Shown in pieces: positions 1-5,887 of a DNA stretch of 5,887 nt (position 1 is the stretch's first letter; the number at the start of each line of letters is the position of its first letter). Source of the DNA: a virus. The notes under the pieces were generated by a model. That model ran no database searches, was not told the DNA's origin, and was given only the letters and a program-made list of their open reading frames with translations. A program made the position numbers and the translations under genes. The DNA is taken from positions 1 through 5,887 of the IMG/VR virus record IMGVR_UViG_3300029609_000116. One strand, given 5' to 3'.

Positions 1-594
1 CTTCCCCTCGCTTTCGGCGTATCCTTGGCCTATTCCTTTTGAGGTCCACACCTTGGTGACGAAGTCCGGGTGTTTTTCGTCGATTTTGAATATGTATTTT
101 ATGATGTAATTTACGGTCTTCTCATTCACAAACTCTCCGTAGTCTACAAATCCGTAATTCCATACCTCTTCCACTTCTTCTTTGCTTTTCTCCGTCCACA
201 ATATTCCGTGTAAATGCATTCTTTGCGAGTCGTTTCCGCCTAATTCGCATATCAAAAAATGTTTTATGCCGCACTTGTATTTTTTGTACCACCGTTTCCT
301 GAATAATTCGATGCTTCGACTTGCTACGTTCAAGGCTTCTTCTTGCTCGAATTTTAATAGTGATTCGTCACTGTACGTCATTGTCACGAAGTGTGCGTTT
401 TCGGGATGATTTTTCAATTCGATCATCAGTCTCACTCGCCACTCGTTTGCTCGTTTTTTTCGACACTCGATGCATTTTCCGCATCCGATTGCTACAACCT
501 TTTTTCTCTCGTCGTCGCAATACGGCGTATGTCCGCCGTTTTTCTTGTTCGGCAGATACCTCTTGTTTCTTATTAATCTGGGATATAAACACAT
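1..594 (-). CDS. Replication initiator protein (microvirus VP4 / protein-A-like), N-terminal 165 codons; the ORF continues in frame across the circular junction into 5887..5450
   Basis: Minus-strand ATG at 594-592, then an open frame down to base 100. Because 1-99 = 5789-5887, the same frame runs on through 5887..5450 (checked codon by codon; the ORF track shows only the distal part from an internal GTG). The translation begins MCLYPRLIRNKRYLPNKKNGGHTPYCDDERKKVVAIGCGKCIECRKKRANEW, a Cys cluster typical of microvirus Rep N-termini. FVTMTY at 373-390 resembles rolling-circle motif I. RMHLHGILW at 196-222 is an HxH motif II. NYIIKYIFK carries a YxxKY paired-tyrosine motif III that straddles the repeat boundary (Y at 106-108, K at 97-99, Y at 94-96 = 5882-5884). 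The in-frame TAA at 742-744 is the VP2 stop, so 594 is the first ATG of the frame. Bases 1-99 are a redundant copy of 5789-5887. Confidence 0.88.
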   Translation of the reverse strand, partial: MCLYPRLIRNKRYLPNKKNGGHTPYCDDERKKVVAIGCGKCIECRKKRANEWRVRLMIELKNHPENAHFVTMTYSDESLLKFEQEEALNVASRSIELFRKRWYKKYKCGIKHFLICELGGNDSQRMHLHGILWTEKSKEEVEEVWNYGFVDYGEFVNEKTVNYIIKYIFKIDEKHPDFVTKVWTSKGIGQGYAESEGK

Positions 595-1818: not shown

Positions 1819-1825
1819 TTTTCAC

Positions 1826-1842
1826 TTTTTTTTAAAAAAAAA
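1826..1842. promoter_or_regulatory. Self-complementary T8A9 tract in the AT-rich leader upstream of VP2
   Basis: ttttttttaaaaaaaaa lies 8 nt upstream of the VP2 ATG in minus sense. It is embedded in a 60-nt AT-rich stretch (1819-1880) that includes atatatgtataat. This is a likely VP2 promoter / leader region. The sequence would bend strongly and melts easily. Confidence 0.3.
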
Positions 1843-1884
1843 TCAAGATACATTCTTGTTATATATGTATAATCGTCTACCGCA

Positions 1885-1926
1885 GTGAACTTCTGTAAGT
1901 TACCCCCCGCTAGGCGGGGGGTTCAC
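1885..1926. other. Nested stem-loop with a perfect all-G/C 8-bp stem, in the ORF108-VP2 intergenic spacer
   Basis: ccccccgc (1903-1910) / tag / gcgggggg (1914-1921) is a perfect inverted repeat. It is flanked by gtgaa (1885-1889) ... ttcac (1922-1926), which is also an inverted repeat, with an asymmetric internal loop ttctgtaagtta. On the minus (mRNA-sense) strand no U-tract follows it, so it is not a canonical intrinsic terminator. Confidence 0.6.
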
Positions 1927-1953
1927 TCATGACGATTTACGAAGGCCATTGCC

Positions 1954-2280
1954 CTATTTGTCCGGATCGACCTTGTTCTCGATTTCGGACAATTCTTGAG
2001 CCTTTTCGACAGGCTTCAAGACATCCATCCTCTGAGCCTCTTTGGCCATTTCGCTTTCTTGGACTTTCGACATCGCCTCTCTTGCTATTTCGAATCTGTC
2101 CGTTCGAATGTCGAATGCCGGAAGCACTCCGTCTGTTTTCTTTGTATAGACGATGGGAATGTCTCCTGCGAGCGGTTCGTTGGTTTCCGTAACTCTCCTT
2201 AACTTAACCTCGAGGCCCTCTGCTTCGTAGGTTGCGTCGACCCTTAACGTAGGTCTGTACGTATAAATCGGCTTTCTCAT
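1954..2280 (-). CDS. Hypothetical protein, 108 aa, between VP1 and VP2; N-terminal half with mixed hydrophobic/charged character, C-terminal acidic Lys/Glu-rich tail
   Basis: Its ATG at 2280-2278 lies only 4 nt after the VP1 TAA (2287-2285): TAA-AAAA-ATG, which is tight coupling. It is on the same strand as every other gene. The protein MRKPIYTYRPTLRVDATYEAEGLEVKLRRVTETNEPLAGDIPIVYTKKTDGVLPAFDIRTDRFEIAREAMSKVQESEMAKEAQRMDVLKPVEKAQELSEIENKVDPDK has varied, protein-like composition. I see no recognisable motif. Confidence 0.55.
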   Translation of the reverse strand: MRKPIYTYRPTLRVDATYEAEGLEVKLRRVTETNEPLAGDIPIVYTKKTDGVLPAFDIRTDRFEIAREAMSKVQESEMAKEAQRMDVLKPVEKAQELSEIENKVDPDK

Positions 2281-2284
2281 TTTT

Positions 2285-4435
2285 TTACAAATTAGGAATT
2301 TCCCGGGCGCTCTTTACGCGGCGACCGATCACGTCGAATCCGATTTGTATCCAAAAATTTTTCGCGTCCAAATCGGAGTTTGCAAACGCTTTATTGAATA
2401 TTTGCGGATCGATATAGGTTGTGGCATCCTTCAGTTTCGGATCGTTAACCACTTCGTAGACCCTATTGAAGGCCATATACTCTAACGGTTCCCCTGCAGC
2501 GAAATCTCCGTATGTTTCGTTGATCGTAGTAGTGTATTCCGTCCACGCCGGTTGTTTCCCTACGCTAAAGTCCGTTGTCTTGTAATTCGCGCTGATTCCC
2601 CATGCTCGACCGTTCATTTCCTGAGATAAGAGCTCTTGAAATCCGATCTGATCGAGATTAGGTTTGTGGAAATCGTTCATCGTTTGGATTCTTGTCCACC
2701 ATTTGTTGCCTTGCGAGTAGTCTACTCTTGGTACGATTGATCCGAGAATCATGATCAGCGACGGTTCTTCGCAGCGGATTTTAATATTCTTCCCTCCTCT
2801 TTTCGATGTCTCGCGGCCTCTTCCTGCGAGTGATCCGAGTGGTTCCTGTCCGGTGTTTCCGCTTTCGAAGGCTGCCGTACTGACAACCTCGTCGAATACG
2901 ATTTCCGATGCATAACCTCCGACATATATCGGGCTCTCTGCAGCGCGACTCACTCGGACTCCGAACACCGCCTCCTGCCAATCCCTGTATGAACCGCCCG
3001 ATACGGCGATCCGATTAAGCATGTCGTAGACTTTTTTCTGCAAGATAAGCGCATCCATGGTGAGCACTCCGCTTGTCACGTCGACCGAGGTTATTTCGTT
3101 GATGCCGTTCGTTCCGTCTATCCACTCGGTATTCAGCCAATTGTTGAAACGGTCGGATAGGTACGTCCGGATTCCCAATCCGCACTGAGATGTGGTTCTC
3201 CCGTAGATCTGGACTCCGCTTTGAGTCTTGAGTGTATCGTACAGCGGAGCCAAGAACGGGTATTTTGTCGCACTCGCAGTGGAACTCGGTAGTATGAACT
3301 CTTCTTGTGACGGTGTCGCTAGAATTTCTTCTTTGAGATTGTCTATCGTGTTCAGATCGAATTTTTGCAGCTGAATGTCGTTTTTCGTGTTGAAACCGGT
3401 GATTTTATCGATTTCTTTGTTTTCATCGATAATTACTGGAGTTTTACCTGCCGTGCTTGGTATGGCATATTGATTCGCCGGAATACTGAATGTGAATCTT
3501 ACGGTCTTTCTATTGACTTGGCTGATCTCGTTTGCTTTTGAGAGTTCTCTGCTTAGAGGAGTTGCCGTACTGTTGATGGCCGGCAGTTTGAGATAGACGT
3601 TCTTGCCGATCTTTTCGGCATCTGCCGCCCCTGAGAATTGAATTTGGACGGATAGGCTTGTGCCCGTAATGGGTATTTTCTCGGTAACATTGAGTACTGT
3701 GCCCTGATTTGAGATCGGGTTTTGCGCCGACGCGTTGTAGATGATCACTCCGTTGCTCAATTTCGGACTGGGCCCGATAACGAATCCGATTTCTTCTTGT
3801 TTGTTGGCGTAATAGTTTTTATAGATGTCCCAGTATGCCAATTCGAAGAGAGCCTGCCTTTTGATATGCAGTTCGGCATTGGTCGCGTTGATAGGTAGTC
3901 CTCTTTTCCCGAGATATGCGGGAAGTGAAGACGGATTGTAGTTATTTGCGTTTTTGATGAGATACTCGTCGATTTTTTCATTCCCGACATAACTTTCCCT
4001 AGTTACCGGTTCCCATAGTTTCGGCAGCTTGATATTGGCCATTTTCAGTCCTACGCCCAGCGCATTGTTGTGAAGCGCCGACATGTATAGTCGTATGGGC
4101 ACGCAGAATACGTCCACTTGGAATTTTGCCGATCCGAATATCGGTCCGTTGGTAGGTAATGTTCGAATGATCGATTCGATCTCGTTGATGTAGAATGTGT
4201 CGCCTGTCAGTCCTATTTCGCAGTAGTAAGGTACGACTGTTGCGAAAGATTGATCGGTTCTTACGATTTTCGACAGGTTATTTGAACTTCGGCCGAAATT
4301 TTCGAGTTCCACGGCCATTTTTTTTCCGGCGCCCAGTCGTTCGCCTCCGAGGGTCTTTTTCATTTCTTTTCGCTTTTTTGTTTTTTGATGATATGTGTTG
4401 TGATTAACGATACTGTAACCAATAGGTCGTTCCAT
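2285..4435 (-). CDS. Major capsid protein (microvirus VP1 / phiX174 F-like); 716 aa from the first ATG, probable true start at ATG 4363 (692 aa)
   Basis: The long minus ORF contains the conserved microvirus MCP N-terminal block ...FGRSSNNLSKIVRTDQSFATVVPYYCEIGLTGDTFYINEIESIIRTLPTNGPIFGSAKFQVDVFCVPIRLYMSALHNNALGVGL. This corresponds to the RSxFDLS...LPGDTF...D.F.VP.R..W pattern of F/VP1 jelly-roll capsid proteins. The length is in the range of large-MCP lineages such as Alpavirinae. There are three in-frame ATGs, at 4435, 4363 and 4318. ATG 4363 overlaps the TGA of the upstream ORF as ATGA and follows an A-rich leader (caaaaaacaaaaaagcgaaaagaa), so I favour it. Confidence 0.92.
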   Translation of the reverse strand: MERPIGYSIVNHNTYHQKTKKRKEMKKTLGGERLGAGKKMAVELENFGRSSNNLSKIVRTDQSFATVVPYYCEIGLTGDTFYINEIESIIRTLPTNGPIFGSAKFQVDVFCVPIRLYMSALHNNALGVGLKMANIKLPKLWEPVTRESYVGNEKIDEYLIKNANNYNPSSLPAYLGKRGLPINATNAELHIKRQALFELAYWDIYKNYYANKQEEIGFVIGPSPKLSNGVIIYNASAQNPISNQGTVLNVTEKIPITGTSLSVQIQFSGAADAEKIGKNVYLKLPAINSTATPLSRELSKANEISQVNRKTVRFTFSIPANQYAIPSTAGKTPVIIDENKEIDKITGFNTKNDIQLQKFDLNTIDNLKEEILATPSQEEFILPSSTASATKYPFLAPLYDTLKTQSGVQIYGRTTSQCGLGIRTYLSDRFNNWLNTEWIDGTNGINEITSVDVTSGVLTMDALILQKKVYDMLNRIAVSGGSYRDWQEAVFGVRVSRAAESPIYVGGYASEIVFDEVVSTAAFESGNTGQEPLGSLAGRGRETSKRGGKNIKIRCEEPSLIMILGSIVPRVDYSQGNKWWTRIQTMNDFHKPNLDQIGFQELLSQEMNGRAWGISANYKTTDFSVGKQPAWTEYTTTINETYGDFAAGEPLEYMAFNRVYEVVNDPKLKDATTYIDPQIFNKAFANSDLDAKNFWIQIGFDVIGRRVKSAREIPNL

Positions 4436-4668
4436 GTCATATTTTCGGGTTTACAGTATTCTCTGGCTTCCTCTTTTGTCTGAAAGGTTCGGTTCGATAT
4501 GCGATTTTTCCCTACGGTCACAACGTATCCTTGTTCTTTGTTGCCGAGGATTGAAAACGGCGACTCTTCTATTCGCTCGCATTCGATGACATCCGTTTGG
4601 TCTTTCGGCGATAGTGAGATGGTTTCTCTTTTCATGTCTTCATTTTTTAATGGTTCCGACTTGTTCAT
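4360..4668 (-). CDS. Hypothetical protein, 102 aa (91 aa if started at the internal ATG 4635)
   Basis: Minus ORF MNKSEPLKNEDMKRETISLSPKDQTDVIECERIEESPFSILGNKEQGYVVTVGKNRISNRTFQTKEEAREYCKPENMTWNDLLVTVSLITTHIIKKQKSEKK. Its TGA (4362-4360) overlaps the VP1 ATG 4363 as ATGA. The ATG at 4668 overlaps the preceding ORF by 29 nt. The alternative ATG at 4635 lies 4 nt after that ORF's stop. It belongs to the same-strand tiled gene array. Confidence 0.5.
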   Translation of the reverse strand: MNKSEPLKNEDMKRETISLSPKDQTDVIECERIEESPFSILGNKEQGYVVTVGKNRISNRTFQTKEEAREYCKPENMTWNDLLVTVSLITTHIIKKQKSEKK

Positions 4669-4855
4669 AGGTGATTTTCGTTACAACGGTGTCTCCGTTT
4701 TTAAACGTCGACGCCGACTGACTCACGAATTGTTTGGCGTTGCAACTCGTAAGTAACACGATTGCTGTTGCACAGATGACTGCGACGATCGCAACGATCG
4801 TTTTGTTCTTCCCCCAGCCGGTTGACTGAAGGAAGTTTTCGTTTTGCTTACTCAT
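4640..4855 (-). CDS. Small predicted lipoprotein / membrane protein (about 71 aa): signal peptide with lipobox LLTSC, then a 33-aa mature peptide
   Basis: From ATG 4855-4853: MSKQNENFLQSTGWGKNKTIVAIVAVICATAIVLLTSC NAKQFVSQSASTFKNGDTVVTKITYEQVGTIKK. The N-region carries Lys residues, the h-region is 17 hydrophobic residues, and then L-T-S-C fits the [LVI][ASTVI][GAS]C lipobox. The ATG overlaps the TGA (4854-4852) of the upstream 70-aa ORF as ATGA. The ORF track extends this frame to ATG 4993 (117 aa), but the extra 46 residues (MSRFEQCRLQNRVGFHREESRPSGPNTRIHRSCDQKIRCAIKSISN) look like low-complexity off-frame translation. Confidence 0.55.
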   Translation of the reverse strand: MSKQNENFLQSTGWGKNKTIVAIVAVICATAIVLLTSCNAKQFVSQSASTFKNGDTVVTKITYEQVGTIKK

Positions 4856-5064
4856 GTTTGAAATAGATTTAATTGCACACCGTATTTTCTGATCACACGA
4901 ACGGTGTATACGTGTGTTTGGCCCTGATGGTCGACTTTCTTCTCGGTGGAAACCGACACGGTTTTGTAGACGGCATTGTTCAAATCTTGACAAGTCTGAA
5001 CTACTCCGTCTTCGTCAATTACCGTTTGCCTGTGGTAGATCGTTCTGCTCTGTGAACATTCCAT
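4852..5064 (-). CDS. Hypothetical protein, 70 aa
   Basis: Minus ORF MECSQSRTIYHRQTVIDEDGVVQTCQDLNNAVYKTVSVSTEKKVDHQGQTHVYTVRVIRKYGVQLNLFQT with a true ATG at 5064-5062. Its stop is ATGA-coupled to the lipoprotein ORF. The composition is protein-like and alternates hydrophobic and polar residues. It overlaps the preceding 60-aa ORF by 50 nt in another frame. Confidence 0.42.
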   Translation of the reverse strand: MECSQSRTIYHRQTVIDEDGVVQTCQDLNNAVYKTVSVSTEKKVDHQGQTHVYTVRVIRKYGVQLNLFQT

Positions 5065-5197
5065 GTCGCCTCATTTTTTCCAGTGTGGTTTGCTCGGCAA
5101 ATTCTATGTTCCATAGTTGTTCGAGCGTCTTCTGCTTTTCCAGTTGAATTTTGGTAAGGCGCTCCTTGAGCGCCTCACCAAGTGCTTGCTTATTCAT
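5015..5197 (-). CDS. Hypothetical protein, 60 aa, predicted helical / coiled-coil-like
   Basis: Minus ORF MNKQALGEALKERLTKIQLEKQKTLEQLWNIEFAEQTTLEKMRRHGMFTEQNDLPQANGN from ATG 5197-5195. Heptad-like spacing of L/I residues in a K/E/Q-rich background. Its start overlaps the TAA (5192-5190) of the upstream 82-aa ORF by 8 nt (ATGAATAAG), consistent with coupled translation. Confidence 0.42.
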   Translation of the reverse strand: MNKQALGEALKERLTKIQLEKQKTLEQLWNIEFAEQTTLEKMRRHGMFTEQNDLPQANGN

Positions 5198-5438
5198 AAA
5201 ATACCTGCGATTTCCATATTTCGGCGTCTATTTCGTATTTGCGGTGTACCAGTCGGATGCTCGCATAGAAGTAGCCGTCTTTTAATTTTCCCTTTGACAG
5301 GCATTGGTGCTCGGCCGGAGCAATATCTGCGTATGCAACGGTTTCTTTTGCCCGATCCATAGCGCTTTTCAGTACGGGAGTCGTCTTGACGAGATACTTG
5401 CCTTCTCTTGTCACTTTCAGAACTTGGTAGATTTTCAT
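5190..5438 (-). CDS. Hypothetical protein, 82 aa, first gene downstream of the replication gene
   Basis: Minus ORF MKIYQVLKVTREGKYLVKTTPVLKSAMDRAKETVAYADIAPAEHQCLSKGKLKDGYFYASIRLVHRKYEIDAEIWKSQVFYE. The ATG at 5438-5436 lies 11 nt after the Rep TAA (5452-5450). Same strand and protein-like composition. Function unknown. By position it could be a VP5/VP3-class small protein, but there is no sequence support for that. Confidence 0.48.
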   Translation of the reverse strand: MKIYQVLKVTREGKYLVKTTPVLKSAMDRAKETVAYADIAPAEHQCLSKGKLKDGYFYASIRLVHRKYEIDAEIWKSQVFYE

Positions 5439-5449
5439 GGCATTGTTTT

Positions 5450-5887
5450 TTAAGATTGTGACTCAAATATATTTTTATTATTTAATTTTTCCAAATTTTT
5501 CTTATAGGATTTTTTTATCCAAACATCGGAACTATAACCTAAAGATTCCGTTCTCTCTTGATGATATTTTAAACACCCGAAATACAATCGCATGCCTTTT
5601 TCATCCGATATATCGATTTTCTCCCCGCACACATATCTTTTTTTCTGATCGAGTTTTTGTAACCACAGCTCCTCCCGTTGGTCCTCGTCGAATATCTTGT
5701 TTCGGAGGTAAATCGGTAAGGCTACTTTCAGTCCGGATGGCATTTTGTAGTAATCTTTTGTTGAAATTCCTCTGAATTTATTAAAACACTTCCCCTCGCT
5801 TTCGGCGTATCCTTGGCCTATTCCTTTTGAGGTCCACACCTTGGTGACGAAGTCCGGGTGTTTTTCGTCGATTTTGAATATGTATTT
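5450..5887 (-). CDS. Replication initiator protein (VP4 / protein-A-like), C-terminal 145 aa; same gene as feature 1..594, joined across the circular junction
   Basis: The minus frame is open from the window end through to the TAA at 5452-5450. Translation reads ...KYIFKIDEKHPDFVTKVWTSKGIGQGYAESEGKCFNKFRGISTKDYYKMPSGLKVALPIYLRNKIFDEDQREELWLQKLDQKKRYVCGEKIDISDEKGMRLYFGCLKYHQERTESLGYSSDVWIKKSYKKNLEKLNNKNIFESQS. The frame is exactly contiguous with codon 100-102 of the window start. The whole Rep is about 310 aa. Confidence 0.88.
   Translation of the reverse strand, partial: KYIFKIDEKHPDFVTKVWTSKGIGQGYAESEGKCFNKFRGISTKDYYKMPSGLKVALPIYLRNKIFDEDQREELWLQKLDQKKRYVCGEKIDISDEKGMRLYFGCLKYHQERTESLGYSSDVWIKKSYKKNLEKLNNKNIFESQS
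5789..5887. repeat. 99-nt exact terminal redundancy (copy of bases 1-99): circular genome closure / assembly overlap
   Basis: The base-by-base comparison is identical: cttcccctcgctttcggcgtatccttggcctattccttttgaggtccacaccttggtgacgaagtccgggtgtttttcgtcgattttgaatatgtattt occurs at 1-99 and at 5789-5887. The unit genome is therefore 5,788 nt. The repeat falls inside the Rep coding sequence, so it is not a biological LTR or att site. Confidence 0.9.

Follow-up and report, generated by a model that had tools for sequence, protein, structure and literature searches.

A conserved gene between the capsid and pilot-protein genes of a gut microvirus clade, and its candidate role in internal scaffolding

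The window analysed here, that is, the whole 5,887-nucleotide (nt) stretch of IMG/VR virus record IMGVR_UViG_3300029609_000116, is a complete circular microvirus genome. Between the genes encoding its major capsid protein, VP1, and the DNA pilot protein VP2 lies an open reading frame (ORF) of 108 amino acids (aa), referred to below as ORF108, whose coding sequence, including the stop, occupies positions 1954–2280 of the minus strand (ATG at 2280–2278, stop at 1954–1956). We find that ORF108 belongs to the core genes of a large clade of gut microviruses that are Alpavirinae-like and associated with Bacteroidales. Its product is most likely the internal scaffolding protein of that clade, in the part that VP3 plays in gokushoviruses and B in phiX174, a reading to which we assign a probability of roughly 50%. 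The frame, with its ATG 4 nt past the VP1 stop, had been singled out in a first-pass annotation made from the sequence alone, which did not state the strand; its length and position are confirmed.

A conserved gene directly after VP1

The window is full of spurious ORFs of 80–130 codons on both strands, so the length of ORF108 is by itself no proof of a gene, and these many chance ORFs of like length are what would favour taking it for a chance ORF in the VP1–VP2 spacer. Its status as a gene follows from conservation (selection, an intact frame and family size) rather than from length. In Nei–Gojobori comparisons with three relatives, the ratio of non-synonymous to synonymous substitution rates (dN/dS) was 0.022, 0.044 and 0.031, with 11 synonymous against 1–2 non-synonymous changes. 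For the same genome pair, VP1 gave 0.18 and VP2 0.10, i.e. ORF108 is constrained more tightly than both. The remaining five frames of the same DNA show a non-synonymous excess or stops.

The ORF108 frame is unbroken in every relative, free of the stops in close relatives that the first-pass annotation had considered as a sign against a gene. In Dulem virus 222, a genome from lemur faeces and the nearest to the window in the phage collection (87.7% DNA identity between genomes), the product is 99% identical. At least 4222 clusters at 90% identity match the family in a profile search of a 5.8-billion-protein collection, and residues G51 and D61 are invariant among 150 diverse members. ORF108 is thus a real, strongly conserved gene under purifying selection; a mere chance ORF is ruled out by the selection signal together with the family size, and we consider that explanation vanishingly improbable.

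The spacer between the VP1 stop and the ORF108 ATG (2281–2284, minus strand) consists of 4 nt, AAAA on the coding strand. Such a distance implies that ORF108 is co-transcribed with VP1, and its translation is possibly coupled to that of VP1 as well. Among relatives, the gap between VP1 and the ORF108 homologue ranges from 3 to 254 nt, with a median of 19 (22 loci measurable).

Distribution of the family and gene order

A tblastn search of the phage collection returned ORF108 homologues in 116 records, all unclassified faecal or environmental microviruses; wherever these homologues are annotated they are called 'hypothetical protein' and lie directly after the major capsid gene. A full-length VP1 homologue was found in 119 phage records, and from these two counts we conclude that the ORF108 family is coextensive with one VP1 capsid clade. 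An exhaustive hidden Markov model (HMM) search of 1.84 billion representatives recovered 1403 clusters at 50% identity. Of these, 1061 score below 1e-10, and the best 150 of the 1403 are stand-alone proteins of 78–163 aa. The exact ORF108 protein of the window occurs on 78 contigs, in every case under the source name 'hypothetical protein'.

Gene order is uniform. The order VP1–ORF108 homologue–VP2–Rep is present in all 79 IMG/VR loci, which were fetched through the ORF108 protein, wherever those genes are on the contig, and it recurs in two Bacteroidales prophages and in the GenBank genomes inspected, so that the same ORF position in related genomes, suggested as a check in the first-pass annotation, is indeed found. 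Its description of the frame as an extra ORF inserted into the genome, on the other hand, has to be abandoned: a homologue is present in every clade genome examined, and distant clades fill the slot too. In the latter, whose VP1 is ~27% identical (Dulem virus 262, mar54), ORFs of 102–116 aa lie between VP1 and VP2; mar35 has an annotated 156-aa ORF there, and the positional equivalent in Dulem virus 262 bears the UniRef name 'Internal scaffolding protein'.

Clade-wide identity to the window over the aligned part is 46.7% for ORF108, on a par with VP1 (45.9%) and above Rep (42.9%) and VP2 (38.2%), and no more than 3–30 of 57 loci have the genome's other small ORFs. As a crude co-evolution test, the correlation among ORF108, VP1 and Rep in identity to the window across loci is uninformative, all non-close loci being about equally distant.

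Two relatives are integrated among bacterial genes (DnaJ, glycosyltransferase, MeaB, Usp), one in a metagenome-assembled genome of Bacteroides sp. (L166, JAMPIH010000016.1) and one in Dysgonomonas sp. 521 (L168, NZ_QVMO01000010.1). This links the clade to Bacteroidales and makes it temperate at least in part, as shown on these relatives rather than on the window genome itself. A family member is also present on a stand-alone scaffold of genome length (5673 nt) assigned to Acinetobacter lwoffii (L167), a match that more likely reflects contamination than a host link. In two further loci (L047, IMGVR_UViG_3300031881_000010, 10,991 nt; L048, IMGVR_UViG_3300031882_000010), the ORF108 homologue, VP1, VP2 and the non-coding element described below are doubled or partly inverted, and both are probably chimeric or concatemeric assemblies. 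One record, MG945511.1 (L002), carries a 'similar to VP3' label; the label belongs to a misc_feature at 1945–5818 that spans most of the genome, and we set it aside as an annotation artefact, not evidence.

Predicted structure of the ORF108 protein

Column conservation over 266 family members, alignments and AlphaFold together delimit a conserved core at residues 15–75 (2056–2238, minus strand). Its motif reads Y18-E-x-E21-x-L-E24-x-K26-x-R28-R29 ... P42-x-x-Y45-T46-x-K-x-D50-G51-V52-x-P54-x-[YF]56-D-I58-R59-T60-D61-R62-F63-E64-x-A66-x-x-A69-M70 or, in short form, YExExLExKxRR, then EP, then PxxYTxKxDGVxPx[YF]DIRTDRFExAxxAM. The core is followed by a variable, charged C-terminal tail (residues 76–108; 1957–2055, minus strand) with low column identity. 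These C-terminal 33 residues are the least conserved part of the protein and contain no F, Y or W. Family tails abound in E, K, A, T and S; they are net negative in 70% of members, with a median charge of −2.

AlphaFold2 models reached a mean predicted local distance difference test score (pLDDT) of 68 with 67 aligned sequences and 75 with 150, at a predicted template modelling score of 0.27–0.31. They show an extended N-terminus (the first 30 residues at pLDDT ~86), a short helix at residues 23–32, a loop bearing DGVxP and a long helix at residues 62–101, in which confidence falls to pLDDT 48–69 beyond residue 80. Neither a compact fold nor beta structure is present in the models, and the protein is predicted to be a non-globular, mostly helical chain, as would be expected if it acquires order only when bound to the coat protein.

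The tail sequence quoted in the first-pass annotation, ESEMAKEAQRMDVLKPVEKAQELSEIENKVDPDK, is correct and corresponds to residues 75–108, with 10 acidic and 6 basic residues. Of the character ascribed to it, the helical part agrees with the modelled helix, at low confidence past residue 80; 'strongly acidic' overstates a net charge of −4 in a protein of isoelectric point (pI) 5.1 and overall net charge −3.

Comparison with known microvirus proteins

Homology searches returned the family itself and nothing of known function. Pfam gave no match for ORF108 and none at E ≤ 10 for 12 family members, and PHROGs gave none for ORF108 or family members. Searching PDB sequences with the family profile yielded only chance matches to designed TIM barrels; at E ≤ 10 the profile search did not return the 1CD3 chains (phiX174 B), and a VP3 profile found no solved VP3 structure in PDB. 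Foldseek recovered only the family's own members in BFVD and nothing in PDB.

Direct profile comparisons were likewise negative. Aligned with hhalign, the 266-sequence ORF108 family and a 79-sequence gokushovirus VP3 profile built from IMG/VR loci gave a probability of 0.5%, which is background. Probabilities were 0.1–0.4% against phiX174 B, D, G, J, C, K and E, phiMH2K VP5 and Chp2 ORF5 and ORF8, with B at 0.3%, D at 0.2% and G at 0.1%. The comparisons with G, B, D and gokushovirus VP3 proposed in the first-pass annotation thus show no similarity (0.1–0.5%), and for the external scaffolding protein D there was no PDB match either.

An ORF in the VP1–VP2 slot is not new to microvirus genomics. 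All BMV proviruses of Bacteroidetes carry a ~150-codon ORF between VP1- and VP2-like genes, for which a role as VP3-like internal scaffold was predicted (Krupovic & Forterre 2011, PMC3091885); Roux et al. 2012 (PMC3394797) reported the same ORF and prediction for Alpavirinae, and later work calls it simply VP3 (PMC4777721). Similarly to ORF108, these ORFs occupy the slot in the order VP1–small ORF–VP2–VP4, are conserved each within its own clade, lack database homologues outside microviruses and have a function known from prediction. The host range and provirus capacity also agree, with Bacteroidetes hosts for the BMV/Alpavirinae group and relatives in a Bacteroides assembly and Dysgonomonas for ORF108. 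At ~150 codons the BMV ORFs are longer than the 108 of ORF108.

These reports also bear on how the first-pass annotation viewed the slot. Its statement that VP2 directly follows VP1 in Alpavirinae-type genomes is wrong, an ORF being present in the slot (PMC3091885, PMC3394797). The same statement is right for gokushoviruses, in which phiMH2K and Chp2 have the order VP1–VP2–VP3, and G does occupy the position between the capsid and pilot genes in phiX174. As for the proposal of a lineage-specific novelty, the family is confined to one VP1 clade, as proposed; the slot ORF as such had already been described in 2011.

The question of descent is separate from that of function. ORF108 could share true ancestry with VP3, or with the Alpavirinae ORFs of the BMV and Dulem virus 262 type, and have diverged extremely since, which would be compatible with a scaffolding role. 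Weak matches that keep motif order hint at this: as a single sequence, the Dulem virus 262 ORF aligned at E 0.003 and probability 10%, and profile against profile the Dulem virus 262/mar54 ORFs aligned at E 0.01 and 4%, neither being significant. The match pairs RGVDPxDIxxxxxxAxxK with KDGVLPxYDIRTDRFEIAxxAMxK, and the equally non-significant VP3 alignment pairs TGxL...Y..A...V with DGVLP...A..AM.KV. All of these scores are far below significance, however, short charged motifs match by chance, and gokushovirus gene order differs in placing VP3 after VP2. The Dulem virus 262/mar54-type genomes are more distant and larger (6.3–6.5 kb), and a pattern scan of IMG/VR with their ORF alignment confirmed no loci. 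We regard true homology as unlikely.

Among functional counterparts, gokushovirus VP3 (PF09675, Chlamy_scaf; Chp2, phiMH2K) resembles ORF108 in being small, acidic and part of the structural gene block, and in its layout, in which the N-terminal and central regions are conserved and the C-terminal tail varies, a tail that in VP3 is of low complexity. It differs in its length of ~145–150 aa and its location after VP2 in phiMH2K and Chp2 rather than after VP1, and its motifs ECDIN and F..LP...R.RF.N.P are missing from ORF108. PhiX174 B (PDB 1CD3; Pfam Phage_B) has 120 aa, a net charge of −3 and a pI of 5.6, compared with 5.1 for ORF108; the median pI of VP3 is 4.5. Gene B is embedded in gene A, unlike ORF108, which follows the capsid gene.

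The slot itself invites a comparison with the spike protein G, which shares the position between capsid and pilot genes. G is a 175-aa beta-barrel, whereas ORF108 has 108 aa, is predicted to be helical or extended and shows no similarity to G. The spike or decoration role entertained in the first-pass annotation thus finds no backing in sequence (hhalign 0.1%) or in predicted fold, since neither a beta-barrel nor a globular domain is predicted; of the two, the fold test is the weaker, model confidence being moderate. The DNA-binding core proteins J and VP8 are likewise different: they are very small (25–45 aa) and highly basic (pI 12 and net charge +12 for J), in contrast to the 108 aa, pI 5.1 and net charge −3 of ORF108. 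A J-like small basic ORF was sought in the window genome, and only out-of-frame ORFs nested within other genes were found.

These comparisons bear on a broader alternative, in which the virion retains ORF108 as a minor structural protein. It could then be a chain on the inner surface or one that cements the capsid, or else an external decoration whose gene takes the slot of G. Its position between two structural genes, its VP1-like conservation and its extended, confidently modelled N-terminal 30 residues would suit such a protein, and so would its extended, non-globular form, which cement and minor capsid proteins typically share. Against it, apart from the missing G similarity and the lack of a beta-barrel or compact domain for a spike, an acidic protein is unlikely to contact DNA as J or VP8 does, and only VP1- and VP2-type proteins had been identified in gokushovirus virions by 2011 (PMC3091885), to which later structures add the basic VP8 (PMC11281519). 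A virion-retained role therefore seems to us distinctly unlikely.

A candidate internal scaffolding protein

The scaffolding role is favoured by a combination of observations: linkage to VP1, capsid-like conservation, the non-globular prediction, size and charge similar to B and VP3, a layout of conserved core and variable tail similar to VP3, and complementarity with VP3. The last is seen in the distribution of the two families, in that the ORF108 HMM matched 0 of 80 complete VP3-bearing gokushovirus genomes and the VP3 HMM 0 of 85 ORF108-bearing loci, making the families mutually exclusive among the 165 genomes sampled.

Several points weigh against this reading. The exclusivity of VP3 and ORF108 partly reflects gene sets that mark two different clades, and ORF108 has no homology to any proven scaffolding protein by hhalign (VP3 0.5%, phiX174 B 0.3%), Pfam, PHROG, PDB or Foldseek. 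All family members are named 'hypothetical protein', and the function is known from prediction only. PhiX174 B, which on its own is largely unstructured, contacts the coat protein by means of its C-terminus, which is conserved and aromatic; ORF108 differs in polarity, with a C-terminus that is variable and devoid of aromatics. In addition, some T=1 viruses assemble without scaffolds (PMC9865509).

As regards sequence, VP3 resembles B in behaviour despite low sequence similarity (PMC11281519), so that a lack of homology is expected for this class of proteins, and the location of VP3 differs among families (Kirchberger et al. 2022, PMC9239249). The first-pass annotation had suggested, among other options, a scaffolding protein that has moved. 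Scaffolding is the best-supported function in our analysis; a relocation would entail homology to VP3 or B, which was looked for and not found.

We infer VP1 binding, presence in the procapsid, absence from the virion and each step of the following scheme. The ORF108 protein would be made together with VP1 from one shared transcript. Its conserved core (residues ~15–75), extended or helical, would dock on VP1 pentamers at their inner face, which would keep the pentamers assembly-competent and help to recruit the pilot protein VP2. The variable, charged and mildly acidic C-terminal tail would face the procapsid lumen, and the protein would be expelled when single-stranded DNA (ssDNA) is packaged.

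If ORF108 acts in this way, its family would be a third class of microvirus internal scaffold beside B and VP3, either independently evolved or unrecognisably diverged, and the fourth core gene of a very abundant gut lineage, a proposal that we advance tentatively and hold at slightly short of even odds. A less likely variant is that the protein remains part of the virion, a structural component not seen before. A true scaffold here would show how freely T=1 ssDNA phages exchange their scaffolds or let them diverge, and it would complete the core set of VP1, scaffold, VP2 and Rep in a lineage common in the animal and human gut. The slot ORF, with the same functional guess, has been known since 2011, and ORF108 leaves the current view of microvirus genomes unchanged. 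Its value lies chiefly in annotation, as a family of at least 1400 clusters at 50% identity with capsid-like conservation and yet no Pfam or PHROG model.

The spacer downstream of ORF108

The 135-nt spacer between ORF108 and VP2 is structured, folding as ssDNA with z = −6.3. A GC-rich hairpin with a 9-bp stem (1902–1922, minus strand; dG −23 kcal/mol; coding strand CCCCCCGC-CTA-GCGGGGGG) lies 32 nt after the ORF108 stop and lacks a T-run. Within 160 nt after the stop of the ORF108 homologue, 69% of 83 loci have a hairpin in the top 10% of their genome. In many relatives this hairpin is followed by a T-run and resembles an intrinsic terminator, e.g. AAAGAGGGGGG...CCCCCCCTCTTTT in L039–L045, which suggests that transcripts are attenuated after VP1/ORF108 and before VP2. 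A scan for sigma-70 promoters and terminators gave no more than the level of shuffled sequence.

The remainder of the spacer contains a conserved non-coding element of ~65 nt (1819–1883, minus strand), which runs from GCGGTAGACGATTATACATATATAACAAG through a T9/A8 inverted repeat to GTGAAAA-ATG and ends at the VP2 ATG. Its consensus is GcGGTA[GC][AG]C[GA]..TAT.C.TATAT[AT]A[CT]CAAG, followed by ~12–20 nt, an nnCTTTT/AAAAGnn repeat and CGAAAA-ATG of VP2, with a conserved box GGTA...TATAACAAG. The outer bases of the inverted repeat covary (TTC/GAA, CGC/GCG, GTC/GAC, GAT/ATC). An nhmmer profile matches all 83 loci that reach past the ORF108 homologue (drawn from L001–L003, L007–L085 and L166–L168). 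Every match is on the coding strand, and the median distance past the stop is 83 nt.

The profile had no match in 80 gokushovirus genomes, Rfam had none for the element, and a literature search found no description of it. We consider the element a candidate promoter of the VP2–Rep unit or a candidate replication origin; it may be of more interest than ORF108 itself. In phiX174 (L004), the best match to the two-box (box1–box2) profile, at 4301–4312 on the minus strand, falls on the origin nick site (CAACTTG/ATATTAAT). At 2.4 bits and E 3.5, and in reverse orientation to the genes, this match is far from significant and serves as a lead only; if it were real, the nicked strand in the clade would be antisense to the genes.

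The element also bears on a non-structural role for ORF108, whether in ssDNA synthesis and packaging, as for phiX174 C and gokushovirus VP5, or as a regulator acting on the adjacent non-coding element. ORF108 lies directly upstream of a cis-element kept in 83/83 loci, its size of ~100 aa is close to that of C and VP5, and Pfam and PHROG scans recognised no C/VP5 homologue elsewhere in the genome. Profile comparison with C and VP5, however, gave probabilities of 0.2–0.3%, C is basic (pI 9.1) where ORF108 is acidic, and the family showed no nucleic-acid-binding fold or motif in the Pfam scan or in Foldseek against PDB. The 4-nt link to VP1, moreover, groups ORF108 with VP1 expression and not with Rep, as do the hairpins resembling terminators that follow the gene in many relatives. 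We judge a non-structural function quite improbable.

Other features of the genome

The first and last 99 nt of the window (1–99 and 5789–5887) form an exact terminal direct repeat, from which a circular genome with a unit length of 5788 nt follows. All genes are on the minus strand, in the order several small ORFs (5438–4360), VP1, ORF108, the 135-nt spacer, VP2 and Rep. VP1 (2285–4363, stop at 2287–2285) matches Pfam Phage_F (5.5e-14) as well as PHROG 514 'major head protein' (9.4e-42). Its reading frame is open back to 4435, and the start is probably M25 (ATG at 4363–4361), which yields 692 aa, the length annotated for Dulem virus 222 (major capsid gene of 2079 nt). VP2 (742–1818) has weak PHROG matches to pilot proteins, and the syntenic gene of Dulem virus 222 is annotated as DNA pilot protein. 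Rep extends from ~600 across the window-end junction of the circular genome to 5450.

Among the small ORFs, ORF102 (4360–4668, minus strand) adjoins VP1 upstream, its TGA stop overlapping the M25 ATG of VP1 as ATGA. It is the only other small ORF of the genome that is widely conserved (30 of 57 loci), has a weak match to PHROG 19242 (unknown function) and contains a hydrophobic stretch near its C-terminus followed by a lysine-rich end. ORF117 (4640–4993, minus strand), conserved in the closest relatives only, carries a lipoprotein-type signal from an internal Met (KNKTIVAIVAVICATAIVLLTSC) and may be a lysis or exclusion lipoprotein.

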